UHGV virus genome: UHGV-0123226 | DNA length: 64,000 nucleotides | DNA from: a virus | Reading direction: 5' to 3' (one strand) | Shown here: positions 4,084 to 32,026 of the stretch, piece after piece | Numbering within the stretch: position 1 is the stretch's first letter | Layout of the letters: every line of letters begins with the position of its first letter | Program-made: the position numbers and the translations under genes | Notes under the pieces: model-generated | The model's input: only the letters and a program-made list of their open reading frames with translations | Database searches by the model: none | What the model was told of the DNA's origin: nothing

Positions 4084-4575
4084 ATGACGTTGGTACCAGA
4101 AATAGATTACAAAAAAACAAAAGATAAAGTTCGTAGATTATTAAAAAATTGTCGAAGCCTACAACGAATGAGTGGTGTAAAAGTACATTTGCAATCTCCT
4201 ATATTATCTGATATGCCGCGACACCATAGTAACAGAAATAATGCTGAGGAAAGTATGGTTCATTTATTTAGATACACGTCTAAGTTATCAATAGAGGCAG
4301 CTAGACAACGTAGAGAGCAAGTCAGAGCGATAGAGCATACGTTAAAATCGTTGCCTGATGTCTCGAGAGAAATATTATACTATTCATATTGTGTACCGAA
4401 TCCATACAGCATGGCTAAGTTGAGTAGAACAATAAAAGTATATCGTGAAAACGAGTTTGGCCAAGTGGAAGAAATAAGCTATAGCATTAAAAATATTGAA
4501 AAGCTGAAAGACAATGCGTTAATTGAATTTGCGGAAGCCTACCATTACGAAAATTTGATAGTTCAAAAAAATTAG
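4084..4575 (+). CDS. arpU: ArpU-family phage late-gene transcriptional regulator
   Basis: 163 aa. Lies between the early genes and the packaging genes, the usual position of ArpU or RinA. Sequence features typical of ArpU-family proteins (LLKNCRSLQRM, REILYYSYC). Confidence 0.65.
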   Translation: MTLVPEIDYKKTKDKVRRLLKNCRSLQRMSGVKVHLQSPILSDMPRHHSNRNNAEESMVHLFRYTSKLSIEAARQRREQVRAIEHTLKSLPDVSREILYYSYCVPNPYSMAKLSRTIKVYRENEFGQVEEISYSIKNIEKLKDNALIEFAEAYHYENLIVQKN

Positions 4576-4736
4576 GGTTTTTTTAGGGATTATTTAGGGT
4601 TTTTAACTCGAAATCCGTTGTATTATGGTAGTATCAAAAGTCAAAGAAATGGACACAGTACACACTTTCTCGTTTAGTCACCGTTCACTTTGTCTTTCGA
4701 TGGTCACTTGCAGACTTACGTTCTCAATAAAATGAA

Positions 4737-4762
4737 GTGAGGTGAATAACCTCCTCTTTTTT
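4737..4762 (+). terminator. weak rho-independent terminator downstream of arpU
   Basis: GAGG..CCTCCTC followed by TTTTTT. Confidence 0.35.
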
Positions 4763-5167
4763 CTACAGGTTTGCAAGGGACACAAATAGTTGCTAGGGAT
4801 GCAGTAGTAACTACCTGATTCATACTAGTCGAGGTTAGGTATATTGCTCTATCCCATCATATGACGATAAGAACATTAACCAGATCTCTGCGGCAGCTGC
4901 TTACGCACGAGAGCAATTCCTAAACTCATAGAGTAGCAGCTAGGTACGTTTAGGATAAACTTAATCAATTGTTTTTGCTGGTGTTTGATTGATTGGTCAC
5001 TGTGGTGGAATATAGACCTTACAAGGTGCAAATCCTTGCCAGTGACATAATCATTTTAGCCGTGAAAGTCTGCGAAAGCTACATCCTGAAGGGAAAACAT
5101 TCTGACGAGAGTGTGTAAAGGTTAATTTGATTTATTAGCAATTGCTAGAAGGTCGCTCCTTCTGGTT

Positions 5168-5240
5168 TGGCGTGTAGCATTGTGGTAATGCAACTGATTA
5201 CGTGTGAGATAAGATGCGGGTTCGAATCCTGTCACGCCAA
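5168..5240 (+). ncRNA. tRNA-like element (acceptor stem, D-arm and canonical T-arm GGTTCGAATCC; no anticodon stem foldable by hand)
   Basis: GGCGTG/CACGCC acceptor pairing, T8, D-stem GCAT/ATGC with a GG loop, and a T-arm GCGGG-TTCGAAT-CCTGT. No 5-bp anticodon stem and no encoded CCA. Followed by a GTAGC-ata-GCTAC hairpin and a T-run. Confidence 0.3.
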
Positions 5241-5360
5241 TAGGTAGCATAGCTACTTAAATAAATTAGGAAACGTCAATAGATGTTTCTATCCTTCACG
5301 AGAGGCATCCACTTGCTGGGTGTCTCTTTTTATACATAAAATTACATAGGAGGTGAGGTC

Positions 5361-6134
5361 ATGGCAAAGTACACAGAGTGGCTGACTGACGAAGGGTTAA
5401 TTAAAATCGAAGGGTGGGCGCGAGATGGCCTCATCGATAAGCAGATAGCCCAAAATATCGGGGTAGCTTATTCAACTTTCAGAGAATGGGTAAAAAAATT
5501 TCCAGCACTTTCGGCATCCTTAAAAAGAGGAAAAGAAGTTGTTGATAGACAAGTTGAAAATGCTTTGTTTAAAAGTGCTATAGGATACGAATACACTGAA
5601 ATTACTAAAGAAAGAATGGCAGATAACGGGCAAAAGAAACGACATAATGGTGAATCATCTTTGACAGAAGAAGAGTGGGAAACAGCACTTGCTTATTTTA
5701 ATTACAGTTGTGCATATTGTGGTAATTCAGATGAGATGACTAAAGACCATCTTGACCCATTAAAAAATGGCGGCGAGTTGACTTTTTCAAATGTAGTTCC
5801 TGCATGTCGTTCTTGTAATTCAAGCAAAAAGGATCATCAATGGCTTTCGTGGTATCAAAACCAAGACTTTTACGACAGATACAAAGCAAATAAAATCACT
5901 GATTATATATCATTCGTGTTAAGCTTTCCGAAAAAAGAAGAAAACACAGAGCTAGTTGTTACAAAAGAAATAACTAAATTGGTAGCCCCTAATCCAACTG
6001 CGGCTATTTTCTGGTTAAAAAACAGAAAACCAGACAAATGGAGAGATCGAAGAGAAACCGAGGTTTCAGGATTGCTTAATATTTCCGATGCAGCAGTCGA
6101 AATCGAGCAATTTTTCGAGGATGATTCTACATGA
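5361..6134 (+). CDS. terS: terminase small subunit with an embedded HNH endonuclease domain
   Basis: N-terminal HTH region (MAKYTEWLTDEGLIKIEGWARDGL...STFREWVKK) and C-terminal AIFWLKNRKPDKWRDRRE are typical of TerS. A roughly 100-aa insert carries CAYCGN..DHLDPLKNGG..PACRSCNSSK, an HNH zinc-finger nuclease motif. Overlaps the terL start. Confidence 0.7.
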   Translation: MAKYTEWLTDEGLIKIEGWARDGLIDKQIAQNIGVAYSTFREWVKKFPALSASLKRGKEVVDRQVENALFKSAIGYEYTEITKERMADNGQKKRHNGESSLTEEEWETALAYFNYSCAYCGNSDEMTKDHLDPLKNGGELTFSNVVPACRSCNSSKKDHQWLSWYQNQDFYDRYKANKITDYISFVLSFPKKEENTELVVTKEITKLVAPNPTAAIFWLKNRKPDKWRDRRETEVSGLLNISDAAVEIEQFFEDDST

Positions 6135-10679: not shown

Positions 10680-11339
10680 ATGGAAGGAGAAAGTCAAATG
10701 AAAACATGTAATTTATTACCAATGCAATTACAATTTTTTGCTGCAGATAATGGAAATGGTTCAGGTGGAGGAGATAATCATCAGCAACAAAATGAAGACG
10801 AACAAAAATCATTGAATCTCGATGAACTAGATGAAGAACAGCTGACTTCAATTAAAGAAAAGTTCGGATTAAAAGACGATAAAGATGTTGATGAGATTAT
10901 CAAAAGTAAAAAATCACGTTGGCAAAAAGATTTAGAAGAACAAAAGAATGAAGCCGCTCGTTTAGCGAAACTTTCAGAAAAAGAGCGACAACAAGCTATT
11001 CTTGATAAAGAAAAAGAAGAGTTTGAAAAACAAAAGGCTGAGTTCCAAAAACAGCAACTGTTCGTTGAAAAAGGAAATCAGTTAAAATCAGAAGGTATGC
11101 CTTCTGATTTTGCCCATAGAATTACCGGAGAAACAGCTGAAGAAATTCTAGAAGATGTAAAGGCATTTCGTGATGAATGGGATAAAGCTGTAGAAGCAAA
11201 GGTGAACGAGCGCCTTGCTAGCAAAAATAAGACACGAGTAGGCAATAATGGTGGTCAAATGACTAAAGCAGAAATTATGCAAATTAAAGACTCTAAAGAG
11301 CGTCAAAGAATGATTGCTCAAAATAGAGATTTATTCTAG
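10680..11339 (+). CDS. scaffolding protein
   Basis: Highly charged coiled-coil E/K-rich protein immediately upstream of the major capsid gene, with an N-terminal LQFFAA leader. Confidence 0.65.
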   Translation: MEGESQMKTCNLLPMQLQFFAADNGNGSGGGDNHQQQNEDEQKSLNLDELDEEQLTSIKEKFGLKDDKDVDEIIKSKKSRWQKDLEEQKNEAARLAKLSEKERQQAILDKEKEEFEKQKAEFQKQQLFVEKGNQLKSEGMPSDFAHRITGETAEEILEDVKAFRDEWDKAVEAKVNERLASKNKTRVGNNGGQMTKAEIMQIKDSKERQRMIAQNRDLF

Positions 11340-11351
11340 GAGGAATAACTT

Positions 11352-12329
11352 ATGAAAAATATGTCAAAAACTAATAAAGAACGTTTATTAAAAATGGATT
11401 TGCAACTATTCGCGGCAGAACCAGACCTTACAAAAATGGATGATTTAGGGGAAATTAAATCAATTGATTTTGTGAATCGTTTTGAGAAAGGCATCAAAGA
11501 ATTATTAGAGTTATTAGGTGTAACACGGTTAGAACCTTTATCTAAAGATATGAAAATTCAAATGTACAAATGGACAACGTCATTAAAAGATGGAAATGTT
11601 GCGGAAGGCGATGATATTCCTTTATCCAAAGTAACTCGAGCTAAAGGAAAATCATTTACAGTAACATTTAATAAATGGCGCCGTGCAGTAACTGCTGAAG
11701 CAATTGCTCGTCATGGAGCATCTATTGCGATTGATCAATCTGACGAAAAATTATTGCGCCAAATTCAAGGTGGAATTAAAACGCAATTTGTTAATTTTTT
11801 AGGGACAGCTCCTACTAAAATTCCAGCTGAAGGGTTACAAAAAGCGTTAGCACAATCATGGGGGAAACTAAGTACATTCGAAGAGTTTGATGGTGCTCAA
11901 TTTGTTTCCTTTGTAAATCCTATGGATGTAGCAACCTACTTAGGGGATACAAAAGTCTTAGCAGATGCATCTAATGTATTTGGTATGACCTTATTGAAAA
12001 ACTTTCTAGGTGCAACAAACGTTATTGTATTAAACGCAATTCCAGAAGGAAAGGTTTATTCTACCGCCGTTGACAATATCGTATTAGCATACTTGGATAT
12101 GAAGGCATCAGATTTAGGTGATATTTTTGTGGACTTCGTTGATGAAACTGGTTTTATTTCAGCGACTCGTGGACGTACTCTACGAAATGCAACATTTGAA
12201 TCATTGTTTATGAATGCTTTAACATTATTCCCTGAAATTCCAGAAGGTGTAGTAGAAGCAACAATTAGTGGTGAAACAACAACGACAACGACAAAACCAA
12301 CAACAACGACTACTACGACACAAGGGTAA
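11352..12329 (+). CDS. major capsid protein (with Thr-rich C-terminal tail TTTTTTKPTTTTTTTQG)
   Basis: 325 aa, follows the scaffold, carries an N-terminal LQLFAA leader; size and position fit a non-HK97-protease capsid module. Confidence 0.75.
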   Translation: MKNMSKTNKERLLKMDLQLFAAEPDLTKMDDLGEIKSIDFVNRFEKGIKELLELLGVTRLEPLSKDMKIQMYKWTTSLKDGNVAEGDDIPLSKVTRAKGKSFTVTFNKWRRAVTAEAIARHGASIAIDQSDEKLLRQIQGGIKTQFVNFLGTAPTKIPAEGLQKALAQSWGKLSTFEEFDGAQFVSFVNPMDVATYLGDTKVLADASNVFGMTLLKNFLGATNVIVLNAIPEGKVYSTAVDNIVLAYLDMKASDLGDIFVDFVDETGFISATRGRTLRNATFESLFMNALTLFPEIPEGVVEATISGETTTTTTKPTTTTTTTQG

Positions 12330-12343
12330 AGTAGGTTTCTAAT

Positions 12344-12727
12344 ATGGAAAATATAGAAAATGAATATGGTAATCGTCTGAAGGAAATCAAAGTTTTGTTA
12401 GGCATTTCTGACGAGCTCCAAGATGAATTGTTAACGTTAGTGATTCAAGACAGTGAAGAACGTATTTTATCTGTCTTGAATCAATATGCTCAAAAAAATG
12501 GAACAGATAAGTACGATGCTGTACCTGATAGTTTGAACTATATATTGAGAGATGTATCAATTAAACGTTTCAACAAAAGAAATAGTGAAGGGACAAGTTC
12601 TGACAGCGAAGAAGGTCGTTCTTTTACTTGGGAAAAGAGTTATTTGGATGAATATTTGAACATTTTAGACGAGTATACCAAGCCTGAAATTAGAGCTGGT
12701 AAAGGAATTGCGAGGTTTTTACCATGA
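12344..12727 (+). CDS. head-tail connector protein (gp6-like)
   Basis: 127-aa acidic protein directly after the capsid gene. Confidence 0.5.
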   Translation: MENIENEYGNRLKEIKVLLGISDELQDELLTLVIQDSEERILSVLNQYAQKNGTDKYDAVPDSLNYILRDVSIKRFNKRNSEGTSSDSEEGRSFTWEKSYLDEYLNILDEYTKPEIRAGKGIARFLP

Positions 12728-13002
12728 TTTATAACCATCGTTGTAAAATAGTCAAGAATATTACTACTGAAGGGTATTTAGGAGAAGAAGCCATTTCAAA
12801 AGAAGTTAGAACAGTACCTTGTAGTATCCATAATATTTCTTTTGATGAACAAATATCTTTCTTTGGAAAATACAATAAGAACGCACTTAAAGTTCATTTA
12901 CAGGGATATTTCTTCTTTGATGAAATTAATATAGACGGTATTTCTAAAAATATTTTTGATGTTAAGTTTCATCGCAATTCAACAGTTGTGATATTAACAT
13001 GA
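12724..13002 (+). CDS. head closure / head-tail adaptor protein
   Basis: 92 aa, overlapping start, position in the connector cluster. Confidence 0.45.
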   Translation: MIYNHRCKIVKNITTEGYLGEEAISKEVRTVPCSIHNISFDEQISFFGKYNKNALKVHLQGYFFFDEINIDGISKNIFDVKFHRNSTVVILT

Positions 13003-13346
13003 GCAAAGTTATTCAAATTGTTGGACTGAAGGCATTTGTTCGGGGTGTTAAGAAGCAAACAGAAAAAACAGAACAGTCTATTCATAAAGAGCTACAAAAA
13101 TCAGGATTTAGAGTTGAGAAAAGGGCTAAACAATTAGCACCGGTAGATACTGGATGGTTAAGAAGCAATATATATTCATATATGATGAGCAGAATGTGTG
13201 TAAGTATAGACTCGCCTGCTAACTATTCAATTTTCATCGAAGAAGGAACACGTTTCATGGCTGCTCAACCTTTCTTGTATCCTGCTGTAAAAGAAGAATA
13301 TCCAACATTAATGAAGAATTTACAAAAGATAGTTGGAGGTAAATGA
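12999..13346 (+). CDS. HK97 gp10-like tail completion protein
   Basis: LAPVDTGWLRSNI motif is characteristic of the gp10 family. Confidence 0.6.
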   Translation: MSKVIQIVGLKAFVRGVKKQTEKTEQSIHKELQKSGFRVEKRAKQLAPVDTGWLRSNIYSYMMSRMCVSIDSPANYSIFIEEGTRFMAAQPFLYPAVKEEYPTLMKNLQKIVGGK

Positions 13347-13704
13347 AGTGGAACATGCCCCAAATACTAAATTTTTAAAAGAGATTTCTGAAAAATTAAA
13401 TAAAACGGGAATCCCTATTTACTATAAACTTCCAGGGCCAGAAATTATTGAGCCTTTTTATGTTATTGGCAATCACTTTGACGATGATACAAAAAGTGCA
13501 AAATTTGGTGCTGCAATAGTGAACACTGATTTACAAATAGATTTATTTTATCCAGTAAATAGTAGAGCAAAAGTCGAAGATGTAATATATCAAACCAAAT
13601 CTGCTCTACGTACAAAGAAAATTAGTACAAATATTAGACCTGATAACACTATTGGCAGAGAAGTTTATCATGTCGTATTTAAAATATCTGATTATATTTT
13701 TTAG
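13333..13704 (+). CDS. tail terminator-like structural protein
   Basis: 123 aa, positioned immediately before the major tail protein. Confidence 0.4.
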   Translation: MEVNEVEHAPNTKFLKEISEKLNKTGIPIYYKLPGPEIIEPFYVIGNHFDDDTKSAKFGAAIVNTDLQIDLFYPVNSRAKVEDVIYQTKSALRTKKISTNIRPDNTIGREVYHVVFKISDYIF

Positions 13705-13715
13705 GAGGAATTCAT

Positions 13716-14345
13716 ATGCCAGAAACAGTAAATAACGGAATTAAAAAATTCCAAGGAACACCTATTAGAGGAAACCGTGTTTGGTACTTTATTCAAAGCA
13801 CACAAGTACCAATTGGATCTCCAGCTCTCTTGCCTGCGTTTCAAACAGATGGTACTACAACTATCGGCGGTGACAACATCGATGAACAAACAAAAATGGG
13901 GCGTATCATTTTAAAGTCAACTGATGAACATAGTATTGAATTGACACAATACTTTGCTCCCGATGATGAATCAATTGATGTTATTGAAGAAGCCAAAAAG
14001 AATGGACATTCTGTTAAAGTATGGCGAGTTGTTGTTGACGATACTCTTGCAACAGAAGAAGGCGCCGGAACTAAAGCTTATCCAGCTAAATTTGGTTATG
14101 GTATCCCTGACGAATTAGAATATGCTGAAGGAGAAGATTTAGTTGAAATTAGCTACACACTAAATATTGTAGGGAAATTGCAAGACGGAACATTTCCTTT
14201 ATCAGACGAAGACGTTGCAATGGTCGAAAGTTTGTATCAATTCCAACGCCCAGGAGAAACTACTGGTGATTATAGCAATATTGATAATGGAACAACAACC
14301 ACCACTACAAGACCTACAACAACCACAACGACAACTCAAGGGTAA
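13716..14345 (+). CDS. major tail (tube) protein (with Thr-rich C-terminal tail TTTTTTRPTTTTTTTQG)
   Basis: 209 aa with a strong RBS; precedes the chaperone and tape measure genes. Confidence 0.65.
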   Translation: MPETVNNGIKKFQGTPIRGNRVWYFIQSTQVPIGSPALLPAFQTDGTTTIGGDNIDEQTKMGRIILKSTDEHSIELTQYFAPDDESIDVIEEAKKNGHSVKVWRVVVDDTLATEEGAGTKAYPAKFGYGIPDELEYAEGEDLVEISYTLNIVGKLQDGTFPLSDEDVAMVESLYQFQRPGETTGDYSNIDNGTTTTTTRPTTTTTTTQG

Positions 14346-14350
14346 TTAAA

Positions 14351-15259
14351 ATGAAATACCTATTATGTCAGCCTGCGATTCAAAGATTTAAATGGGAATT
14401 AGAAGTGTGTCTTACTAACTTAAAAAAAGTAGGAATTGAAGACATCGTATTGCTCTTTTCGAAACATGATCCATCAATTCCTGTGTATTTTAAAGAAGAG
14501 TATGGTGTAACAGTGCATACTTATGAGGATAATCGAAGGGATAAAAGCTATATCCCTTCGATTAAACCTTATTTGTGGTGGCAATATTTAAAAGAAGACC
14601 CTAGTAGGGAAAAAGAAACATACTTCTATATGGACTCAGATGTGATTTTTAGAGAACTGATTAATTTCAACAAGTTTAATTTGAAAGAGGATGTTTGGTA
14701 CTGTTCAGATTGTAATGGCTACTTAAATATTGATTATATACGTAGCTGCAAAAATGGAGACAAAATATTGCAGGAGATGTCCGGTATAGTTGGTGTCAAT
14801 CTTGAATCACTTGAAACAATTAATAGTAATTCAGGTGGGGCTCAATGGGTTATAACCAATCCGAAAAAAGAATATTGGGAAAAGGTTTATTGTGATTCAA
14901 TACGTTTATTCAAGTATTTAAATTACCAAGACAGTAATATTCAAATTTGGACTGCGGAAATGTGGGCTCAATTATGGAATATGTTAGTTTTTAACATAGG
15001 CCCGAAAATCGATGAAGAATTAAATTTTTGCTGGCCAACTGATCCAGTCAATAAATGGTACGAAACAAAAATATTACACAATGCAGGTGTAACTGAAAAA
15101 GATAAAGATTTATTTTTTAAAGGAAAATATGTTAATACTAGTCCTTTTGAAGATAGGTTAGATAATATGGCTAAAGATAAAGCAACTATAAAATATATAG
15201 AAGCTATAAAAATGGCTAAAACAGGAGGAAATAATATATGTCATTTGCAGTTAAATTAA
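14351..15259 (+). CDS. putative GT-A-type glycosyltransferase (DxD motif) inserted in the tail module
   Basis: 302 aa. ETYFYMDSDVIF at about residue 95 (a DXD motif) is preceded by a hydrophobic beta-strand-like IVLLFSKHD. Inserted between the major tail protein and the chaperone, where no gene normally sits. Confidence 0.4.
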   Translation: MKYLLCQPAIQRFKWELEVCLTNLKKVGIEDIVLLFSKHDPSIPVYFKEEYGVTVHTYEDNRRDKSYIPSIKPYLWWQYLKEDPSREKETYFYMDSDVIFRELINFNKFNLKEDVWYCSDCNGYLNIDYIRSCKNGDKILQEMSGIVGVNLESLETINSNSGGAQWVITNPKKEYWEKVYCDSIRLFKYLNYQDSNIQIWTAEMWAQLWNMLVFNIGPKIDEELNFCWPTDPVNKWYETKILHNAGVTEKDKDLFFKGKYVNTSPFEDRLDNMAKDKATIKYIEAIKMAKTGGNNICHLQLN

Positions 15260-15714
15260 AAGAGAAACAATTAGAAATTAAGTTTAATTATGGAATGTTA
15301 TTTAAAGCTAATAAAAAGCTAGGTACAAAAGATGCTCAAGGTAACTCACAAAATGATGGCGCAGGTGTTCTTTTTGTAAAAGTTCTAGAAGAAGATGATG
15401 ATGCGCTTTTTGATATTATCAAGCTGGCTTCAAAAGATAAAGTAACAGATGAAGACATTGCGAAGTCTGTTCAGGATTTTGTGGAAACTTTTGAAGATGA
15501 AGAAGAAGGATACAGCATGGTATTTGAAACACTTAAACAAGAAATGTTGGATTCTGGTTTTTTCGTGAAGAAATTGAAGAAATATATCAACAATCTAGAG
15601 AAAGCAGCAGATTACTTGAAGAGCCAACAACCGACCGAAGAGATTCAAAATCCAGAGCAACAAGCAAAAGCGGTCAAAGATTTAGCAGATCGAATCAAGA
15701 AAGAAATCTCATAG
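15238..15714 (+). CDS. tail assembly chaperone (gpG-like)
   Basis: 158 aa, acidic, immediately upstream of the tape measure gene. Confidence 0.55.
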   Translation: MSFAVKLKEKQLEIKFNYGMLFKANKKLGTKDAQGNSQNDGAGVLFVKVLEEDDDALFDIIKLASKDKVTDEDIAKSVQDFVETFEDEEEGYSMVFETLKQEMLDSGFFVKKLKKYINNLEKAADYLKSQQPTEEIQNPEQQAKAVKDLADRIKKEIS

Positions 15715-16028
15715 TGAATTGTGCTAGGCAAGGATTAGTGGATATTCCATTAATTATGTCTTGTTATAAGTGGGAGTTAGAAGCGATTTTAGAAGGATTA
15801 GCTTTGAAAAGTGTAGATGAACAAGAACAAAAAGCCCATTATGCGTTTACTTTAAGATATGTTTTGAATGCAAAGAAGCCAAAAATAAAAAAAGTATTTG
15901 ATAAAGAAAAAATTGAACGCAAAATAAAATCTATTTTTGCTACGACAAACGAAAAGGAAGAAACATACAATCGTGTGGAAAAGGCAAAAGAAGTGATGAA
16001 CTATTTCAAAAATAAAAAGTGGAGGTGA
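15714..16028 (+). CDS. probable gpT-like extension of the chaperone (-1 frame relative to 15238..15714)
   Basis: ORF in the -1 frame that abuts the chaperone stop and ends just before the tape measure gene; no canonical slippery site identified. Confidence 0.35.
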   Translation: MNCARQGLVDIPLIMSCYKWELEAILEGLALKSVDEQEQKAHYAFTLRYVLNAKKPKIKKVFDKEKIERKIKSIFATTNEKEETYNRVEKAKEVMNYFKNKKWR

Positions 16029-16032: not shown

Positions 16033-19000
16033 ATGGCTTTTGAAGGTGCTATTAACGCTGTTATCGGTGCTGATTTGTCGCAATATAATGCTGCAATGAA
16101 TAAAGTTTCATCTATAGCGAATAAAACTATGAATGATGTTGCTAACATATTACAAAGCGGATCTATGAGTACTACTCAAAAAGTCGGTCAAATTATGAGT
16201 AAGTTAGCTGATCCGATGCTAAATAGCGTTTCTAAAGTTTTACCACAAACTGTTGCATTATTTGAAAAAGCTGGCGGCGGTATTCAACGTGTAATTGCTG
16301 GAATCGGTGAAAAAATACCACAACCAATTAAAAAAGGGATGTCTGCTGCCAAGAATGCGGTTGTAAGTTCAGCTAAAGAAATGGGAGCTGGACTATCACA
16401 ACAAACATCAATAATTGGTAAAGCATTTTCGACAGTTGCTTCTAAAATACCACAGCCTTTTAAAAGTGCATTTAAAGCTGTTGGATCAAGTGCTAGTGAA
16501 ATAAGTTCAAAAATTACTACTTTAGGAACTAATATAGGTTCGAAGTTAACTAGTGCGTTTAATAGCGCTGGGTCAAAAGCGTCTAACGCACTAAATAAGA
16601 TGGTTTCAGGAACCAATAAAGCAGGATCAGCAACAGATGATTTAGTAAAAAAAATCATAGGTATTGGTGCAGCATACGCGGTAGCTCAAAAAGGTATATC
16701 AGCACTCTCTGGTGGATTTAAAGAAATTATAGGTGACTTGAACCAAGGCTCAGCTACATGGAAAACTTTCAATGCTAATATGGAAAATATTGGTAAAGGA
16801 AAAGATGAAATAGCATCTGTAAAAAAAGAGCTACAAGACTTTGCCACTAAAACAATTTATTCTGCTTCTGAAATGGCTACTACATATAGTCAATTAGCAG
16901 CTGTAGGAATAAAAAATACTGACAAATTGGTTATGGGGTTTGGTGGATTAGCTGCGGCAGCTGAAAATCCGACACAAGCGATGACAACGCTAAGCCAACA
17001 AGCTACACAAATGGCTGCAAAACCGATGGTTCAATGGCAAGATTTTAAATTGATGTTAGAACAAACTCCTGCAGGTATTGCAGCTGTTGCTAAAACTATG
17101 GGTATGTCAACCTCTGAAATGGTGACTGCGGTTCAAGATGGAAAAATTGCTACTCAAGATTTCTTTGATGCAATAACTAAAACTGGTACAAATGAAACGT
17201 TTTCAAAAATGGCTACCGAATATAAAACTGTCGGTCAAGCAATGGATGGCTTAAAGGAAACAATCACCAATAAATTACAGCCTGCTTTTGATCAGCTATC
17301 TCAAGTAGGGATAGAAGCAGTCAGCAAATTAACAGATAAAATTGGTGATTTTAATATGGATAAAATATCTGCAGCAGTAGATGTTGCTACAAATGTTTTA
17401 AGCCATTTTATCAATGGTACTGATTTGTCTAAAAAAAGTATTGATGCTTTAAAAGGTGCTATCCAAGGACTATTACCTATAGCTGCAGTACTGGGAAGCG
17501 CGTTAGTAGTCAGTAAAGCAGCTCCTGCAATTGCATCTCTTTCAAGCGGATTTTCAGCATTTTCAGGAGTATTAGGAGGTATGGTAAGCGGACCGTTCAA
17601 AATGTTTAGTTCTGGATTAACAGGTTTGATAGGTTTAATTCCTAAAATAGGAAGTAGCTTATCCATGGCAAGTTCTGTTGGGATGGGAGCCTTAGGTGGC
17701 ATGACTTCTGCAATGGGAACTATCATGCAAGTGGCTTTATCAGCTATAGGACCTGCAGCTATATTAGGGTTAGTTATAGCTGGATTGGGATTAATAAATA
17801 ATCAATTTGGAGCACAAATTGACCAATTATTAAACACAGTAACTACAAAAGGACCAGAAATTATCACTAATCTTGTTAATGGTATTACCTCACAATTGCC
17901 ACAACTTATGCAAAGTGGCACTGAATTAATTGCTAAACTAGCTAGTGCTATATCTACAATGATTCCAATAATCATAGATTCAGGTATGAAAATTATTGGA
18001 AGTCTTGTACAAGGTGTGGGGCAAAATGCACCGTCTCTTATAAATTCAGCGTTAGAAGTTATTACTTCATTTTTGAGCTCCATAGCAAGTGCATTGCCTG
18101 AATTATTAAAAATGGGAATGGAACTTTTGCTGAATATAGTTAAAGGAATCATTCAAAATATACCAAAAATAGTTGAATCAGTGAAAAAAATCTTGGATTC
18201 GTTTGTTAATTCTGTAATGGAAAATCTACCTCAAATTATAGATACGGGTATTCAGATTCTTCAGAATTTAATTGATGGTCTTACTCAATTATTGCCACAA
18301 ATTTTACCTGTCGCATTAAACGCGATTCTAACATTAATCCAAGGTTTAATGGATAATATACCTAAGCTTTTAGATGGAGCAGTCCAAATTATAAATTCAT
18401 TATGTAATTTTATTGTAGAAAACTTACCTATGATTCTAGACGCAGCAATGCAAATTATTATGGCCTTGGTTAATGGTATTGTTGAGAATTTGCCAAACAT
18501 CGTTTCTTCGGGAATACAAATCATTATGACGTTGATTGGCACGGTAATCCAGATGCTACCACAAATTATTGCTGCTGGGTGGGATATTATTAAAGCTCTT
18601 GCTGGTGCTATTTTAGAGGCTATTCCTAATGTTTTAAAAGGAGCTTGGGATGGTATTAAAAATGGGTTTTCAAATTTATGGAACACAATAACGGGTAAGT
18701 CATCTGAAACAAGCTCAAAAGTATCAAATGATGCTACTACTACTGCTACAAATTTGAGTTCATCTTATGGACAAGCAAGTTCAAATGTTGCTAATTCAAT
18801 GAACAACATGAATTTAAATGTAGGTAATTTGAGTACACAAGCCTCAAACAATGCAATTAATGCTTCTAATGCAGCTAAAGATGGTACGTCTTCAAACTAT
18901 AATCTACTAGCTACAAATGTATCAGGAACGATGAATAACCTTAATAGTGTAGTAAGTTCAAATTCAACTAAAGCAGCAAATGCTGCAACAAAAGAGTCTA

Positions 19001-19947
19001 ATAGTGCACTAAATGGTGTCTCTAGTGACTATAATAGTATTTTATCTAATGTTAATCAGGCTACCTCTGGTACTGCGAATGCTGTTGGCACTAATATGAA
19101 TCAAGCTACCCAACAAGCTTCTAGTGCCTCTAACCAAATGTTTCAAAATGTATCAAATAATACACAAAATATTAATAATAAATCTTCGCAAGACATTTCA
19201 CAGATGTCAAACAATGTAACGAAGTCCATGAACTCAATGAAGTCAAATGTGACAGGTACAATGAATAGTGTTGTTAGTACTATTAACGGGGGATTCAGTA
19301 GGATAAATTCTGCAAATACTCAAGCATTCAATTCAATGGCAAATAATGTTCAAAATGGTATGAATAGAATGAATAGTGCCGTTATGAATAGCATGAATTC
19401 AATGACAAGCATAATGATTTCTTCCACGAGTCGAATAAACTCCATTTTTAGTGGATTGACTTCAACGCTTTCTAATATCGGTTATAATGCAGGTATAGGT
19501 TTGAGAAATGGTTTAGCAAATTCTGCGGGTTCTATTTACGCAACTGCTAGTAATATAGCTAGTAACGTAGCCCGTACTATGAGGAAAGCACTGGATATTC
19601 ATTCGCCATCACGTGTTACCGATAAAATTGGGGGATTTGTTGGGATGGGTTTAGTTAACGGCATGTCAAGAATGCAAAAGCAAGTTGATAGACAAGCGTT
19701 AGCATATGCAACATCAATAAAATCACAAGAATATGAAGCAAATTCTGTTTTAACGGCGGATACTAGAAATGTCTCTAATAAGCTTTCTTCATCTATGAAT
19801 GAATTAAGCGAAGAAGTTAAAACTAGTCAATTACAAGAACCAGTATTTGAAGTTCATACCGAACTTGTTGGAGATAAAATATACACAATTGTTAAACAAA
19901 AAGAAGCAAGAAATCAAAATAAAGTTAATTTGGTTAACAAGAAATAG
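16033..19947 (+). CDS. tail tape measure protein
   Basis: 1304 aa, Ala/Gly-rich with hydrophobic segments and a long Asn/Ser-rich C-terminal region, in the canonical position. Confidence 0.9.
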   Translation: MAFEGAINAVIGADLSQYNAAMNKVSSIANKTMNDVANILQSGSMSTTQKVGQIMSKLADPMLNSVSKVLPQTVALFEKAGGGIQRVIAGIGEKIPQPIKKGMSAAKNAVVSSAKEMGAGLSQQTSIIGKAFSTVASKIPQPFKSAFKAVGSSASEISSKITTLGTNIGSKLTSAFNSAGSKASNALNKMVSGTNKAGSATDDLVKKIIGIGAAYAVAQKGISALSGGFKEIIGDLNQGSATWKTFNANMENIGKGKDEIASVKKELQDFATKTIYSASEMATTYSQLAAVGIKNTDKLVMGFGGLAAAAENPTQAMTTLSQQATQMAAKPMVQWQDFKLMLEQTPAGIAAVAKTMGMSTSEMVTAVQDGKIATQDFFDAITKTGTNETFSKMATEYKTVGQAMDGLKETITNKLQPAFDQLSQVGIEAVSKLTDKIGDFNMDKISAAVDVATNVLSHFINGTDLSKKSIDALKGAIQGLLPIAAVLGSALVVSKAAPAIASLSSGFSAFSGVLGGMVSGPFKMFSSGLTGLIGLIPKIGSSLSMASSVGMGALGGMTSAMGTIMQVALSAIGPAAILGLVIAGLGLINNQFGAQIDQLLNTVTTKGPEIITNLVNGITSQLPQLMQSGTELIAKLASAISTMIPIIIDSGMKIIGSLVQGVGQNAPSLINSALEVITSFLSSIASALPELLKMGMELLLNIVKGIIQNIPKIVESVKKILDSFVNSVMENLPQIIDTGIQILQNLIDGLTQLLPQILPVALNAILTLIQGLMDNIPKLLDGAVQIINSLCNFIVENLPMILDAAMQIIMALVNGIVENLPNIVSSGIQIIMTLIGTVIQMLPQIIAAGWDIIKALAGAILEAIPNVLKGAWDGIKNGFSNLWNTITGKSSETSSKVSNDATTTATNLSSSYGQASSNVANSMNNMNLNVGNLSTQASNNAINASNAAKDGTSSNYNLLATNVSGTMNNLNSVVSSNSTKAANAATKESNSALNGVSSDYNSILSNVNQATSGTANAVGTNMNQATQQASSASNQMFQNVSNNTQNINNKSSQDISQMSNNVTKSMNSMKSNVTGTMNSVVSTINGGFSRINSANTQAFNSMANNVQNGMNRMNSAVMNSMNSMTSIMISSTSRINSIFSGLTSTLSNIGYNAGIGLRNGLANSAGSIYATASNIASNVARTMRKALDIHSPSRVTDKIGGFVGMGLVNGMSRMQKQVDRQALAYATSIKSQEYEANSVLTADTRNVSNKLSSSMNELSEEVKTSQLQEPVFEVHTELVGDKIYTIVKQKEARNQNKVNLVNKK

Positions 19948-24909: not shown

Positions 24910-26211
24910 ATGAAAAAGAAAATTTTAGTAGGAGCGCTTGTCGCTCTATTTTTTATGCCTTTAAATGTATTAGCTGCAAGAGGCGATCAAGGTGTGGATT
25001 GGGCGATTTATCAAGGTGAACAAGGTCGCTTTGGCTATGCACATGATAAATTTACTATCGCTCAAATTGGCGGCTACAATGCTAGCGGTATTTATGAACA
25101 ATACACATATAAAACGCAAGTGGCAAGTGCTATTGCCCAAGGTAAACGTGCGCATACCTATATTTGGTATGACACTTGGGGAAACATGGACATTGCGAAA
25201 ACAACAATGGATTACTTTTTGCCACGTATTCAAACGCCTAAAAATTCCATCGTTGCATTAGATTTTGAACATGGAGCGTTGGCTAGTGTTCCAGATGGAT
25301 ATGGAGGATATGTAAGTTCAGATGCCGAAAAAGCAGCAAATACAGAGACAATTTTGTACGGTATGCGCAGAATCAAACAGGCTGGCTATACTCCAATGTA
25401 TTACAGCTATAAGCCATTTACACTAAATCATGTAAACTATCAACAAATCATCAAAGAGTTTCCTAACTCTTTATGGATTGCTGCGTATCCTATTGATGGT
25501 GTGTCACCAAATCCATTGTATGCTTATTTCCCAAGCATGGATGGTATTGGCATTTGGCAATTCACATCCGCTTATATTGCAGGTGGTTTAGATGGTAACG
25601 TAGATTTAACAGGAATTACGGATAGTGGTTATACAGATACAAATAAACCAGAAACGGATACGCCAGCAACAGATGCAGGCGAAGAAATTGAAAAAATACC
25701 TAATTCTGATGTTAAAGTTGGCGATACCGTCAAAGTGAAATTTAGTGTTGATGCTTGGGCAACTGGCGAAGCTATTCCAGATTGGGTTAAAGGAAACAGT
25801 TATAAAGTGCAAGAAGCAACTGGAAGCAGAGTATTGCTAGAAGGCATTTTGTCATGGATTAGCAAAGGTGATATTGAACTATTACCAGATGCAACAGTTG
25901 TCCCTGATAAGCAACCAGAAACAACACATATAGTTCAACATGGCGAAACATTATCAAGCATTGCTTACCAATACGGTACCGATTATCAAACTTTAGCTTC
26001 GTTAAATGGATTGGCTAATCCAAACCTTATTTACCCTGGACAAGTTTTGAAAGTAAATGGATCAGCAACAAGTAATGTTTACACAGTCCAGTTGGGTGAT
26101 AATTTATCAAGTATAGCGGCTAAACTTGGCACGACTTATCAAACATTGGCAGCTTTAAACGAATTAGCAAATCCTAACTTGATTTATCCGGGTCAAACGT
26201 TGAACTATTAA
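24910..26211 (+). CDS. endolysin: signal peptide + GH25 muramidase + 2x LysM
   Basis: N-terminal Sec-like signal ([22 protein letters not shown]), a GH25 core ([16 protein letters not shown]) and two C-terminal LysM repeats ([13 protein letters not shown]..., [13 protein letters not shown]...). Confidence 0.9.
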
Positions 26212-26371: not shown

Positions 26372-27742
26372 TTGAAGAAACATTCTAGGAAAATAAAAAA
26401 TAATAAAGAACTAACTTTACTGATTATAGGAATTTGGATTGTTTTTTTTCTTTTTAATATGTATATGCCGACAGTGAGAGCTGATGACTTAGTTTACGTA
26501 AATAGATTAGATAAATTAGGATATTTGGGTGCTTCAATAGAACATTATAAAACATGGAGTTCAAGAGTTATTATTGAATTATTCTTGATGTTTTTTTCTA
26601 AACACCTTATGTTATGGAAATTATTAAATTCAACGATAATGACAGGTTCTATAGTATTGCTTTGCAAATATGTTTTCAACAAGTTATATTCTAAAAATTT
26701 GCTACTAGTTTTTTCTATATTTTGTCTAATTCCTTTAACAATAATGGGGGAAACTGGTTGGATCGCTACTACGTTAAATTACCAATGGCCAGTAGCTTTT
26801 GGTTTGCTAGCTTTTTACCCTTTTTTTCAAGTGTTAAGCGGTAAAGAAATAAGCAAAAAAATATATTGTATAAGTATTCCTTTATTAATATTCTCTGCTA
26901 ACCAAGAGCAAGTTAACGTATGCTTTTTTGTTTTAACTAGTCTAGTAAGTTTGTATTTATTATTTAGAAGAAATTATAATTATAAGTTATCGGCGCTTTC
27001 CATAATAAGTTTAGTGGAATTATTTTTTTCTTTGACGGCCCCAGGGAACACATTGCGGGCTGCTCATGAAATTAATAAATGGTTTCCTGAATACAAAAAA
27101 TTTAACTTTGTGAATAAATTAGACCTTGGTATATCATCATTTGGAAAACCGTTTTTTTTAGACACGAATATTTTATTTTTATTACTCTTTTTTATATTAT
27201 TCTTTCTATCTTATAAGAAATGTCAGAACTATTATATACGTATATTAACCGCATTGCCGCTTTTTCTAAATTTGATTACTTTTTTCGGAAACACAATGGG
27301 ACAAAGTTTTACTTATGTCAATGGAAATAAAAGATCAATGATTTGGAATAGCAACAATCTGGGGAATATCTTTACAAGATTTGGAACTAAACTATCAATT
27401 TATCACCCTGGAACTTGGGTAGCTACTTTTATAGTTTTGGGATTATTATTATGTTTAATTATAGGAATTTATATAAGTTTTGATGATAAAAAATCTGCTG
27501 TTTTTTTAGTAGTGTTAATGATGATGGGTTTTTGTTCAAGATTAATTATGGGTTTTTCTCCTACTGTTTGGGCTTCAGGTATGCGAACGTACTATATACT
27601 TTTTATTGTCGTCGCTATAATAGTGTTAAAGGGAATTAACGAGATGAAGAAAAACATGAGCTTGCAAAAGAAAGAACTATTATCATTTAGTTTAACTTTA
27701 TTAGGTATCTGCACCTTAGTGTTAACGGTGCTGAATAGATAA
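26372..27742 (+). CDS. polytopic integral membrane protein (10 or more TM helices), AT-rich moron
   Basis: 456 aa, strongly hydrophobic throughout, lower GC than the flanking phage genes, own promoter and terminator. Lies between the prophage 1 lysis genes and the prophage 2 integrase. Confidence 0.6.
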   Translation: MKKHSRKIKNNKELTLLIIGIWIVFFLFNMYMPTVRADDLVYVNRLDKLGYLGASIEHYKTWSSRVIIELFLMFFSKHLMLWKLLNSTIMTGSIVLLCKYVFNKLYSKNLLLVFSIFCLIPLTIMGETGWIATTLNYQWPVAFGLLAFYPFFQVLSGKEISKKIYCISIPLLIFSANQEQVNVCFFVLTSLVSLYLLFRRNYNYKLSALSIISLVELFFSLTAPGNTLRAAHEINKWFPEYKKFNFVNKLDLGISSFGKPFFLDTNILFLLLFFILFFLSYKKCQNYYIRILTALPLFLNLITFFGNTMGQSFTYVNGNKRSMIWNSNNLGNIFTRFGTKLSIYHPGTWVATFIVLGLLLCLIIGIYISFDDKKSAVFLVVLMMMGFCSRLIMGFSPTVWASGMRTYYILFIVVAIIVLKGINEMKKNMSLQKKELLSFSLTLLGICTLVLTVLNR

Positions 27743-28071: not shown

Positions 28072-29253
28072 TTAAAAATTTACATAGCTACTGAAAGCAT
28101 CTGTTGCTTCTTTAGTAACTTCATCAGAAACATGAGTGTAAGTATCCATAGTTATTTGTAAAGAAGAATGTCCTAAACGTTCTTGGATTATTTTAGACCT
28201 AACATTATCTGATTCGAATAATAATGTTGCGTGGGTATGCCGAAAACCATGACAACCAATAGAATGTAAGTTAGCCTTTTCTGCCAATCTTTTGGAACGT
28301 TGGTAAATGTCTTGACTTCGGAACATGGTACCATCAATTTTTGTAAAAATGAGTTGTGTTTTAAACCCACCTTTTTTCATTAAAGCTTCACGCTGTCTAA
28401 GTTTCCATTTTTTTAAGATATAAGCAGTCTTGTCATCAAAAGAAATTTTACGAATAGAATTGGGAGTTTTAGGATCGTTTATAGTCAATCCATTTGTACT
28501 GATAGCAGTAGTTTTATTTATATTAACTACCTGCTTTTTTAAATCAATATCATTCCAATTCAATGCTAAAGCTTCACCAACACGTATACCAGTAAAAGAA
28601 AGTAAGCGAAAAATAGCACAGTCTAAGTCAGCATAGTATTTTAGAACTAAACTTTCTTCTTTGGCTTGATTGGCAATACTATCAGCTGTATTTAAGAAAT
28701 GTTCCAGTTCGTCTTTTGTATAGAACTTTCTTTTTGTATTCTTTTCTATTTTCTTTAGCGAACTAGGCTTAGTTATTTTCTTAAATGGGTTTGAATCTAT
28801 TATTTCTAAACCAACAGCATAGTCACAAACACGAGAAGCATAACTCAAAAGTACTTTTCCCATTTCATTCTTTTTATACCATTCATTAACAGATTTTTGC
28901 ACGATCTTGACTGTTAAACGCTCAAGTCGCATTTTCCCAAATGTGGGTAAAATGTGTTTTTTCATACGTCGTTCAGTAGCTATGAATGTGGATTCCCTAA
29001 CTGTTTTTTTGTATTCGTCCAACCACATATAATAAACTTCTTCAAAAGTGGTTAAACGAGTATGCTCGTTAGCTAGGTTTCCATTATCAAAATCTAATTT
29101 TTTTTGATTAAGCTTGAGCTGTGCTTCTTTTTTTGTATTACAGTTTCTGATAGTGACATTAATTTGTTTTCCAGTTAAATAATCTACGCCTAAATAGGCA
29201 GTTACTTTCCAGTATTTTTTTCCTTTTTTTGTATATTGTTTAAAAGTTGCCAT
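28072..29253 (-). CDS. int: tyrosine recombinase (phage integrase)
   Basis: 393 aa; C-terminal catalytic region with HGFRHTHATLL and the LGHSSLQITMDTYTH motif containing the catalytic Tyr. Confidence 0.9.
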   Translation of the reverse strand: MATFKQYTKKGKKYWKVTAYLGVDYLTGKQINVTIRNCNTKKEAQLKLNQKKLDFDNGNLANEHTRLTTFEEVYYMWLDEYKKTVRESTFIATERRMKKHILPTFGKMRLERLTVKIVQKSVNEWYKKNEMGKVLLSYASRVCDYAVGLEIIDSNPFKKITKPSSLKKIEKNTKRKFYTKDELEHFLNTADSIANQAKEESLVLKYYADLDCAIFRLLSFTGIRVGEALALNWNDIDLKKQVVNINKTTAISTNGLTINDPKTPNSIRKISFDDKTAYILKKWKLRQREALMKKGGFKTQLIFTKIDGTMFRSQDIYQRSKRLAEKANLHSIGCHGFRHTHATLLFESDNVRSKIIQERLGHSSLQITMDTYTHVSDEVTKEATDAFSSYVNF

Positions 29254-29374
29254 TGTTTATCCTTTCCACTTGGGCAAGCGAATAGAAGGAATGACAAATT
29301 TCTAGCACCTCCTTATTAGATTTTAAAGCCCCTAGCATGAATCGAACACGCTAGAACTCACCAGAGAGGGGGAT

Positions 29375-30247: not shown

Positions 30248-30262
30248 TTTTATCCCTTCCTT

Positions 30263-30910
30263 CTATAAGCCCATTTTTACATAACTAATTAATTTTGTTG
30301 AATCATAGTTATATCTATATTGATTAATAGCTGATCTAGCTAAGCATGGATTTAATAAAAATATTTTTGTTAAAAAATCATATAGCCTTACGTATAGTGC
30401 TGCAGCACTCATTTCAAATTCTTCGCAAATTTGACGGAAAGACATTCGTTTTCTTAAACATTCTTTCAATGCTTCATTGTTTATTAAAGCAAGGGATGCA
30501 AATATATTAGCTCTTATTTCTTTTGGTTCATCTTCGCTAGTGTATCCTTTTCCAGTAATTAAATCTGAAAAACTTTGAGACTTGCATTCCTTATTCATAT
30601 CAAAAAAATAATGTGCAGATTCATGAAGTATTGAGAAATTTTGCCTTCCTTTAACCATTGTTGAATTGTAGGAAATTCCGCATTTATCGTGAAATCTTAT
30701 TATGTTTCCTGAAAATATTTTTCTTGAAACATCACCGAAACTATAGGGAATTATGTCAACATTTTCTACGTCAATCATATAATCTTTGTAGTGTTTCCAT
30801 CTTAACTCTTTTAATTCAATTCCATAGTAATTGGCAACTTTTTCAATAATAATATATGTCTGGTCATGATATTCAAAATAAGTATCGTAGTCTAAATACA
30901 TAGGGGTCAT
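30263..30910 (-). CDS. ImmA/IrrE-family zinc metallopeptidase
   Basis: HESAHYFFD (HExxH) and a gene order paired with the XRE repressor. Confidence 0.8.
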   Translation of the reverse strand: MTPMYLDYDTYFEYHDQTYIIIEKVANYYGIELKELRWKHYKDYMIDVENVDIIPYSFGDVSRKIFSGNIIRFHDKCGISYNSTMVKGRQNFSILHESAHYFFDMNKECKSQSFSDLITGKGYTSEDEPKEIRANIFASLALINNEALKECLRKRMSFRQICEEFEMSAAALYVRLYDFLTKIFLLNPCLARSAINQYRYNYDSTKLISYVKMGL

Positions 30911-30914
30911 CCAA

Positions 30915-31256: not shown

Positions 31257-31290
31257 TTTAGCATATTCTCCTTTGTTGAACAGTTATTTA

Positions 31291-31496: not shown

Positions 31497-31549
31497 GTTT
31501 ATTTTCTATCTAATTGACTTACTAAATACTAAAGAAAGGAGCATCGAAA

Positions 31550-31741: not shown

Positions 31742-31744
31742 GAG

Positions 31745-32023: not shown

Positions 32024-32026
32024 ATC

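Follow-up and report, generated by a model that had tools for sequence, protein, structure and literature searches.

Prophage A, a Phifelvirus-like prophage of E. faecalis, probably encodes a one-enzyme virion glycosylation module, a reading to which we would give a probability of about 0.75. The predicted enzyme is a glycosyltransferase (GT) encoded within the tail module, and its predicted acceptors are threonine-rich C-terminal tails carried by both the major capsid protein and the tail tube protein. The window, meaning the whole 64-kb stretch of DNA that was analyzed, also holds a second prophage, prophage B, which has neither the GT nor the tails. The features of the module and its operon context are as follows.

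11352..12329, plus strand: major capsid protein gene, predicted acceptor, 325 aa, phrog_544 major head protein (E = 6.4e-70)
12270..12326, plus strand: capsid C-terminal Thr tag GETTTTTTKPTTTTTTTQG, predicted O-glycosylation acceptor, 13 Thr
13716..14345, plus strand: major tail (tube) protein gene, predicted acceptor, 209 aa, TIGR02126 TP901-1 family (E = 1.1e-33)
14286..14342, plus strand: tube C-terminal Thr tag NGTTTTTTRPTTTTTTTQG, predicted acceptor, 13 Thr
14351..15259, plus strand: predicted soluble retaining GT-A (GT8-like) glycosyltransferase, 302 aa, phrog_4417
14633..14641, plus strand: D95-S96-D97, DxD metal/nucleotide-sugar binding motif
15077..15088, plus strand: H243-N-A-G, candidate third metal ligand
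15238..15714 and 15714..16028, plus strand: tail assembly chaperone pair, phrog_183 and phrog_2567

A sequence-only reading of this DNA had singled out the capsid, tube and 302-aa ORFs, and all of its coordinates and sequences for them are correct on re-check. The capsid gene is 93-99% identical in nucleotides to those of phiFL1A-C, phiFL2A/B and phage 1_EfsPF36, and profile searches also match the tube protein to PF06199 and phrog_238. The two tails agree at 16 of their final 19 residues, with 13 Thr in each; within the core, T6-[K/R]-P-T7-Q-G, 16 of 17 residues are identical and the K/R mismatch is conservative. At the DNA level, 44 of 57 nucleotides are identical but just 7 of 19 codons. 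The Thr codon usage of the phage would by itself give about 6 of 19 matching codons, and the synonymous sites in the tails therefore look randomized. This bears out the earlier description of near-identical peptides written in differing codons. The accompanying claim that they did not arise by recent duplication of DNA holds for the window; elsewhere the tail ends are identical at 24-26 of 27 nucleotides in some genomes, which indicates that gene conversion between tails occurs. The window has 197 ORFs of 50 aa or longer, and among these only the capsid and tube ORFs contain a run of at least 4 Thr; the pair of tails is not due to chance.

The GT ORF starts 5 nt past the tube stop, and its 3' end overlaps the start of the chaperone gene at 15238, the product of which matches PF12363 (E = 2.6e-10). 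In prophage A the GT gene is an insertion between the tube and chaperone genes; GT-less relatives have the order tube to chaperone with no intervening gene, as had been supposed for most siphoviruses. The family to which the protein belongs, phrog_4417, is annotated to date as "unknown function" and is without a Pfam entry. The predicted model has a pLDDT of 94.5 and consists of one Rossmann-like alpha/beta/alpha nucleotide-binding domain with a central mixed beta sheet. Classical retaining GT8, GT6 and GT24 enzymes with DxD lead its fold matches by about 5 Z units. The segment YFYMDSDVIF, in which a DxD near residue 95 had been pointed out, is present, the DxD following a beta strand at 90-93 (DSSP of the model), and in 38 homologs down to 50% identity both D95 and D97 are invariant and S96 nearly so. 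Likewise invariant in these sequences are Y93, H243, A245, G246, K257 and the GGAQW and WTAEMW blocks; the role of H243 as a metal ligand is suggested by likeness to the GT8 motif HxxGxxKPW. A chaperone or Dit accessory fold, which the sequence-only reading had named as the outcome that would speak against a GT, is not matched, and the true chaperone is the next gene. The model is confidently that of a GT-A nucleotide-sugar transferase, predicted to be soluble, and the assignment of the 302-aa product to this class is supported as a prediction from fold and motifs only.

Sequence methods tie the phrog_4417 family to no known GT family. Searches with the GT ORF against Pfam, NCBIfam and, by phmmer, PDB, and a profile hmmsearch against PDB sequences, gave nothing meaningful, and a per-member Pfam scan of the 38 members at E ≤ 10 gave no consistent match, with PF01501 or any other GT absent. 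Because there is no sequence match to the GT8 profile or to PDB sequences, phrog_4417 is best regarded as a new sequence family, GT8-like in fold only. Two side issues were set aside. A 14-bp hairpin within the GT ORF was rejected as a regulatory element, as it is not conserved in homologs. Phages phiFL2A and phiFL1C are uninformative as natural GT knock-outs; the phiFL2A tape measure and adaptor genes are fragmented too, and the GT disruption there is thus probably a sequencing error.

The GT gene lies inside the structural operon in prophage A and in 77 phage records, and the family comprises 868 protein clusters, across which the DxD, the His and other pocket-type residues are conserved. 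At 81 loci with a GT homolog, 128 of 2330 ORFs end in poly-Thr, although the loci are phylogenetically clustered and these counts overstate the number of independent events. All 128 are capsid- or tube-sized, on the same strand as the GT and adjoining it, and they fall into at least 12 clusters unrelated by BLAST. Depending on the phage, the GT gene follows either the capsid or the tube gene, and the tails are kept either way. Approached from the other direction, T7-Q-[GA]-stop is encoded on 39 IMG/VR contigs, at least 34 of which carry the GT; 4 of the loci are truncated and 1 is without a GT. The end after the Thr run is common to capsid and tube in 13 of 28 distinct genomes, where shuffling gives an expectation of 2.9.

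Named phages with the pairing include VPE25, Lactococcus 1706, Bacchae, Clostridium phiCTP1, PT1-4, Staphylococcus Sextaecvirus and Lactobacillus myoviruses, so that siphoviruses and myoviruses, temperate and strictly lytic phages, are all represented, on hosts from Enterococcus, Lactococcus, Lactobacillus, Staphylococcus, Clostridium, Listeria and Bacillaceae. In phage 1706, capsid and tube alike end in T9-10-HHD. VPE25 has tails only on the tube and on a prohead protease-like protein, its capsid protein having none. LP65 was considered as a counter-example and rejected: it has no poly-Thr run, yet 2 ORFs upstream of its divergent GT carry Thr-alternating tails of the TETQTQ type, so that LP65 counts as a variant and not as an exception. 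A protein that bears these divergent repeats is annotated as structural, with confirmation by MS. Among 10 diverse representatives of the clusters, 6 show the pairing and 4 have no adjoining Thr tract, the latter being short contigs or cellular contexts (L143 and L145, for example); the family is neither exclusively phage-borne nor always tail-associated.

Relatives without the GT serve as controls. Coetzeevirus R3.3 has the GT and the tails, whereas Silenus, phiJL-1 and cIP1 have neither, and their proteins end exactly at the point where the R3.3 tails start. Javan47, Javan513, Javan570 and SPP1 likewise have neither. Tube homologs lacking a Thr tail thus come from Javan47/513/570, Silenus, phiJL-1, cIP1 and SPP1 (gp17.1), all GT-less, and the capsid homologs of the GT-less Streptococcus Javan prophages end in EGVVEATIEA plus a short PG motif, with the Thr tract absent. 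Across many unrelated families of capsid and tube proteins, tails are present where the GT gene is and missing in GT-less relatives. All the computational checks that the sequence-only reading had put forward turned out in its favor.

The nearest structural relatives of the model include GlyE and LgtC, which are glycan-extending and not protein-initiating enzymes. It is conceivable, though unlikely, that the GT is real but does not initiate on Thr: the host would prime the tails and the phage GT extend them, or the GT would modify a non-protein acceptor such as cell-wall polysaccharide, teichoic acid or DNA, the tails being handled by the host. The span of the pairing across hosts from Enterococcus to Bacillaceae speaks against a host-specific primer. 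The gene has its place in the late structural operon, and it is found in strictly lytic phages too, for which there would be no point in a lysogenic conversion of the envelope. As to DNA, the known T4 DNA glucosyltransferases have the GT-B fold, unlike the GT-A fold here. If host enzymes used the tails, their loss in GT-less relatives would be unexpected.

More improbable still is that the tails act unmodified, perhaps forming a hydrophilic brush or serving as a flexible spacer or assembly signal, with the GT-fold protein unrelated or non-catalytic, for example a tail-binding assembly factor. Poly-Thr is by nature hydrophilic and disordered, its modification is so far predicted only, and the slot of the gene near the chaperones would suit an assembly factor. 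Against this, the invariance of the DxD, His and pocket-type residues in the 38 sequences and the 868 clusters indicates a conserved active site, and the fusion of family members to GT2, Glyco_transf_7C, methyltransferase and radical-SAM domains, in particular to a second GT and to methyltransferases, points to sugar chemistry. The strict gain and loss of tails with the gene implies a functional coupling, of which enzyme and substrate is the simplest form. That the tails receive from the enzyme not a simple sugar but, for example, sugar-1-phosphate or another nucleotide-activated group, we regard as only faintly plausible, given that the best fold matches, by the margin above, are classical retaining enzymes with DxD.

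The preferred reading is then that of a GT acting directly on the Thr tails. On fold and motifs, the 302-aa product would be a soluble, cytoplasmic, metal-dependent retaining GT-A, and the 5-nt gap and chaperone overlap suggest that it is co-produced with its substrates from the late structural operon. The donor would be a host nucleotide sugar, probably UDP-hexose or UDP-HexNAc, and the co-occurrence of gene and tails suggests that an alpha-linked sugar is put on the hydroxyls of the 13 Thr in each disordered tag. The acceptors would be the two most abundant surface subunits, with about 415 capsid subunits in the head if T=7 is assumed and a few hundred tube subunits as implied by a 1304-aa tape measure. 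The O-linked sugars of a virion would then number roughly 10^3 to 10^4 and form a glycan brush. The weakest step is the benefit, which is likely to be shielding of the particle's surface from antibodies, proteases or non-productive adsorption, by analogy with mycobacteriophages, or else attachment to glycans of mucus or the cell wall.

The AT-rich membrane protein gene at 26372..27742 had been suggested to belong either to the same glycan pathway or to an unrelated one. The gene occupies the moron slot behind the endolysin gene, and its product is a DUF6056 protein with about 10 TM segments. Just 10 phage records have homologs, the best match being annotated "O-antigen conversion protein C", and they are missing from phiFL1A-C and 1_EfsPF36, which have the GT-tail module. 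Membership of the pathway is rejected because the gene does not travel with the module; it is an unrelated lysogenic-conversion gene.

To our knowledge, phage-encoded virion glycosylation has been demonstrated only in mycobacteriophages. There it reduces antibody recognition. For Firmicute phages, a full-text literature search found no report of virion glycosylation or of poly-Thr tails, in agreement with the first impression that such a system is undescribed. We consider it rather likely that single-enzyme virion O-glycosylation is widespread but unrecognized in Bacillota phages, with a new orphan GT-A family that recognizes a portable poly-Thr tag, itself grafted independently onto 12 or more structural proteins unrelated to one another, convergently with mycobacteriophages. 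If so, a glycan coat would be a common feature of phages that infect gut, dairy and pathogenic Gram-positive bacteria, among them VPE25 (used as a model and in therapy), dairy phage 1706 and Staphylococcus Sextaecvirus. This would affect phage-therapy pharmacology through immune clearance of Enterococcus and Staphylococcus phages, and would bear on phage-mucus interactions in the gut and on dairy phage biology. The large hypothetical protein family phrog_4417 would gain a function, a simple sequence rule would predict modified virion proteins, and a cytoplasmic pair of one enzyme and a short tag could serve as a tool for site-directed protein glycosylation and glycan phage display.

Among known systems, GT8-type enzymes (LgtC 1g9r, glycogenin, Skp1 alpha-galactosyltransferase, WbbM and the UGGT catalytic domain) have no detectable sequence similarity to the prophage A GT, which has its own C-terminal half with the invariant WTAEMW and a predicted poly-Thr peptide acceptor. 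In SRRP glycosylation of streptococci and staphylococci, exported adhesins are modified by the GT-B pair GtfA/B, which initiates, followed by GlyD, GlyE and others; here, the substrates are virion subunits and the phage has no GtfA/B-like gene. Mucin-type ppGalNAc-transferases are retaining GT-A enzymes with DxD that place an alpha-linked sugar on Thr/Pro-rich repeats, and dense Thr clusters broken by Pro resemble the T6-K/R-P-T7 of the prophage A tails, but these enzymes are Golgi-lumenal, eukaryotic GT27 members that also have a lectin domain, and they are not linked by evolution to the prophage A enzyme. The chlorovirus PBCV-1 (PMC5408694 and PMC9614988) uses several enzymes including virus-encoded GTs (A64R) to put atypical N-linked oligosaccharides on its major capsid protein; it differs as a eukaryotic giant virus without a Thr tag.

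The closest parallel is with mycobacteriophages Che8 (gp108-110), Corndog (gp38) and Myrna, in which, according to PMC12363180, citing Freeman et al. 2023 (Cell Host Microbe), phage-encoded cytoplasmic GTs glycosylate capsid and tail tube, the two most abundant virion subunits, so that the particle is coated with glycans. By Pfam, Che8 gp108 combines GT2 with a TylF-type methyltransferase, while gp109 resembles GT2 and gp110 GT25; a methyltransferase partner is thus shared by gp108 and some phrog_4417-family members (P0234). The hosts differ in phylum, Actinomycetota there and Bacillota here. Che8 has three enzymes about 48 kb from the structural genes, unlike the single enzyme within the tail module of prophage A, and neither its capsid, which ends in FNKTGS, nor its tube, which ends in QYSDGS, has a homopolymeric Thr tag. 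No mycobacteriophage proteins are among the best 50 BFVD fold matches of the GT, and hhalign against the phrog_4417 family gives probabilities of 0.04% for gp110 and 0.5% for gp109. Hence the mycobacteriophage parallel drawn from the sequence stands in its logic but not as homology, and the GT-tail module is analogous, not homologous, to the Che8 system.

The window holds two tandem prophages, A (1..~27800) and B (28072..64000). The structural module of prophage A has 93-99% DNA identity with the E. faecalis phages phiFL1A-C, phiFL2A/B and 1_EfsPF36, and the genes at issue here are as an earlier sequence-only reading had described them.

10680..11339, prophage A scaffold
11352..12329, prophage A major capsid protein, followed by connector and neck genes
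13716..14345, prophage A major tail (tube) protein, TP901-1 family
14351..15259, prophage A extra ORF of 302 aa
15238..16028, prophage A tail assembly chaperone pair
16033..19947, prophage A tape measure gene
24910..26211, prophage A endolysin, end of the late genes
26372..27742 (+), polytopic membrane protein (DUF6056, ~10 TM segments), located past the endolysin in the moron slot, before prophage A ends
28072..29253 (-), prophage B integrase
~45-63 kb, prophage B late genes
48657..50021, prophage B HK97-type capsid protein
51273..51926, prophage B tube protein
61526..62827, prophage B endolysin, 433 aa

The starts of the two endolysins are almost identical. The N-termini of the prophage A scaffold (…PMQLQFFAADNG…, 10680..10740, +) and capsid protein (…KMDLQLFAAEPD…, 11352..11420, +) have in common an LQ[LF]FA-A motif, which we take to resemble the ribosomal protein L27/Prp protease cleavage site; a site of that type is used in scaffold and capsid processing by S. 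aureus phage 80alpha.

The prophage A capsid protein ends in GETTTTTTKPTTTTTTTQG and the tube protein in NGTTTTTTRPTTTTTTTQG, Thr-rich tails (tag peptide TTTTTTKPTTTTTTTQG) with 13 Thr each. A Thr run of 4 or more is found in these two proteins only, among 197 ORFs of at least 50 aa in the window, and the shared tails are real and far beyond chance. Their DNA agrees at 7 of 19 codons and 44 of 57 nucleotides, about the level predicted for unrelated DNA encoding the same peptide with the phage's own Thr codon usage. Near-identical peptides in different codons, not a recent DNA duplication, is what had been claimed, and it holds for this window, where synonymous sites are randomised, unlike in some other genomes. 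In five of the compared loci (L058, L064, L065, L067, L122) the capsid and tube genes agree at 24-26 of their final 27 nt, which suggests gene conversion between the two tails of a genome.

The 302-aa ORF belongs to phrog_4417 ("unknown function", E = 4e-146). No match to it turns up in Pfam, NCBIfam or PDB sequences, also when a 38-sequence profile is used or the cutoff is relaxed to E = 10. Its AlphaFold2 model from a 38-homolog alignment is very confident (mean pLDDT 94.5, pTM 0.91), and the top Foldseek matches in the PDB are all retaining GT-A glycosyltransferases (E = 7e-9 to 1e-6), namely WbbM, the UGGT catalytic domain, alpha-1,3-GalT, blood-group GTA/GTB and glycogenin. By its modeled fold the protein is thus a predicted GT8-like retaining GT-A enzyme, and by sequence a new family; this confident fold bears out the suspected GT-A assignment and rules out a tail chaperone or Dit accessory. 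The DXD motif that had been placed at about residue 95 is D95-S-D97, right behind beta strand 90-93, and is invariant, as are Y93, H243 (in H-N-A-G), a GGAQW block and a WTAEMW block, motifs that fit an active enzyme. The protein is expected to be cytoplasmic because it has no hydrophobic segment (maximum KD19 1.15).

Inside the same ORF, a perfect 14-bp inverted repeat with a 7-nt loop is followed by a T-rich stretch (14530..14564, +), with a predicted RNA folding energy of -25.3 kcal/mol (z -7.2). phiFL1A and other homologs do not conserve its 5' arm, which makes the hairpin allele-specific; it could be an attenuator of enzyme expression, or fortuitous. The phiFL2A record (L150, NC_013643.1 19915..27821) has the enzyme region unannotated or fragmented. 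We do not take it for a natural knock-out, since its adaptor and tape-measure genes are split as well and sequencing frameshifts in the 2010 assembly are probably the better explanation.

The core of the case is the comparative genomics linking this putative enzyme to the tails. In the forward direction, using the best 80 of 549 IMG/VR relatives plus phiFL1A, 1-2 ORFs with a poly-Thr C-terminal tail are found in 81/81 loci. These ORFs (128 of 2330) are all on the strand of the enzyme gene and of capsid or tube size, with none elsewhere in the loci. With the tails removed they fall into at least 12 BLAST-unrelated clusters, among them capsid proteins and tube proteins of several families each, and some small proteins. 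In phages of the E. faecium and Coetzeevirus types the enzyme gene follows the capsid gene, in those of the phiFL type the tube gene. In the reverse direction, scanning IMG/VR for DNA encoding T7-Q-[G/A]-stop, a pattern tuned to the window's tail and a sample biased towards relatives, gives 39 contigs, at least 34 with the enzyme, 4 whose stored loci end before the expected position, and 1 without it. The last, L083, is from a high-GC phage and has the pattern and no enzyme homolog within its 9.5-kb locus; either the tag is served there by a different enzyme or the gene is on another part of the 25.7-kb contig. The tagged gene there (4359..5393) encodes a 344-aa protein ending ...SPTTTTTTTQG. 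The residues after the Thr run also agree between capsid and tube (QG/QG, QA/QA, KKA/KKA, KKV/KKV, SHA/SHA, HHD/HHD), and the two match within a genome in 13 of 28 distinct genomes, where shuffling predicts 2.9.

The pairing holds down to ~28% identity. In Lactococcus phage 1706, capsid/protease ORF10 ends ...T9HHD, tube ORF13 ends ...T10HHD and the enzyme is ORF14; the VPE25 tube protein ends ...T3DT10AGK; Clostridium phage phiCTP1 has tails on ORF4, ORF11 and ORF18, with the enzyme as ORF19; and Staphylococcus phage PT1-4 has three T-rich proteins just upstream of it. In the myoviruses Bacchae and LP65 the gene is flanked by small T-rich or TETQTQ-repeat proteins, and the annotation of one of those in LP65 calls it an MS-confirmed structural protein. 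The whole family comprises 868 clusters in a profile search of 1.84 billion representative proteins. Among 10 diverse representatives, 6 have poly-Thr or T/S tracts in adjacent genes and the other 4 are short contigs or cellular loci. In phage contexts the association is strong without being universal. Long members (P0166, P0172, P0178, P0234) are fused to GT2, Glyco_transf_7C, radical-SAM/SPASM or methyltransferase domains.

Thr tracts also occur beyond capsid and tube, at 964..1368 of L122 (1706 ORF3), 6119..7297 of L121 (VPE25), 7990..9087 of L134 (PT1-4) and 2356..3945 of L133 (phiCTP1 ORF4), in proteins that are holin-family, prohead protease/scaffold-like or portal-sized, so there may be more acceptors than the two major subunits. 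Locus L144 has two proteins with T10-T15 runs before the family member and an APS-kinase gene after it. The bacterial locus L145 has a family member together with C39-peptidase ABC exporter, LanC-like, LicD and GT2 genes.

Phages lacking the enzyme serve as matched controls. Tube homologs 50-59% identical exist among them. In Coetzeevirus R3.3, which has the enzyme, the capsid protein ends ...TTTTTTKAPTTTTTSSHA and the tube protein ...TTTTTTSHA; in Silenus, phiJL-1 and cIP1, which do not, the capsid protein stops at ...AIFTASPKA, exactly where R3.3 goes on. Streptococcus phages Javan47, Javan513 and Javan570 have the window's capsid C-terminus (...EIPEGVVEATIEA) with no enzyme and no Thr tract, and neither feature is found in SPP1 or in prophage B of the same window. 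These four enzyme-less phages (L124-L127) have a different short Pro/Gly motif at the C-termini of capsid and tube proteins (...AAAPGVGG and ...SSPGVGG in Javan570, ...EVPGAVPGG and ...SLPGAVPGISSERH in Javan47, ...APGTVPAP in SPP1 gp17.1), which may be a second kind of shared tag.

The DUF6056 protein had been suggested to belong to the same glycan pathway or to an unrelated one. Homologs are in only 10 phage records, the closest (95% identity) in VEsP-1, annotated "O-antigen conversion protein C", with none in the phiFL phages that have the same module. A polytopic membrane enzyme of this kind would act outside the cytoplasm, and virions assemble inside it. On these two grounds we reject the shared pathway and keep the unrelated one; the gene probably serves lysogenic conversion, acting on the host envelope, and is unlinked to the module.

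The modeling shows a predicted soluble, conserved GT-A enzyme whose DxD/His site is intact and whose gene is part of the late operon, and the genome comparisons show its gain and loss together with the Thr-rich tags of abundant virion proteins. We put at about 0.75 the probability, computed evidence being its basis, that this enzyme glycosylates the tags. It would O-glycosylate the 13 Thr of each tag from a host nucleotide sugar, in the cytoplasm, before or during assembly; an alpha linkage is expected, since its closest structural relatives are retaining enzymes. The tags would be disordered and exposed. Exposure of the tube tag is supported by SPP1, whose tube homolog is 39% identical and whose frameshift product gp17.1* extends the same C-terminus (17.1/17.1* annotation); that extension is reportedly a surface-exposed domain. 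With 13 sites per subunit, the sugars on a virion would number in the thousands. They may shield it from antibody or protease, as reported for mycobacteriophages, keep it from aggregating or adsorbing to debris, or help it adhere to mucus or wall glycans; least certain are which sugar is donated and what the benefit is.

An enzyme that only extends a host-primed glycan, or that acts on envelope polymers or DNA, is an unlikely reading given the breadth of hosts, its presence in lytic phages and the loss of the tails in relatives lacking it. That the tails function unmodified next to a non-catalytic protein of GT fold is harder still to credit, with the active-site residues invariant and family members fused to glyco-enzyme domains. 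We give the smallest share to transfer of a group other than a plain sugar.

As far as the account of Freeman et al. 2023 carried in PMC12363180 goes, the mycobacteriophages Che8, Corndog and Myrna have the one phage system described so far, and we found no publication describing a module such as this one, in keeping with the earlier reading, which was aware of no description for Firmicute phages. The likeness to mycobacteriophages that had been drawn stands for how the systems would work and fails for homology. The Che8 glycosyltransferases are gp108 (GT2 plus TylF-like methyltransferase), gp109 (GT2-like) and gp110 (GT25-like); gp109 and gp110 have no profile similarity to our family (hhalign probability <1%), and a poly-Thr tag is absent from both the capsid and the tube protein of Che8. 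The Che8 enzyme genes lie at 56-58.7 kb, a long way from the structural genes (5-8.4 kb), whereas the window's enzyme is encoded in the tail module. Enzyme family and number, the position of the genes, the architecture of the acceptors and the phylum of the host thus all set the two apart. SRRP glycosylation in streptococci, the glycosylation of chlorovirus capsids and mucin-type O-glycosylation are further analogues in function. The module would be a form of phage virion glycosylation that arose convergently in another phylum, is based on a tag and needs a single enzyme, from a large unannotated protein family.
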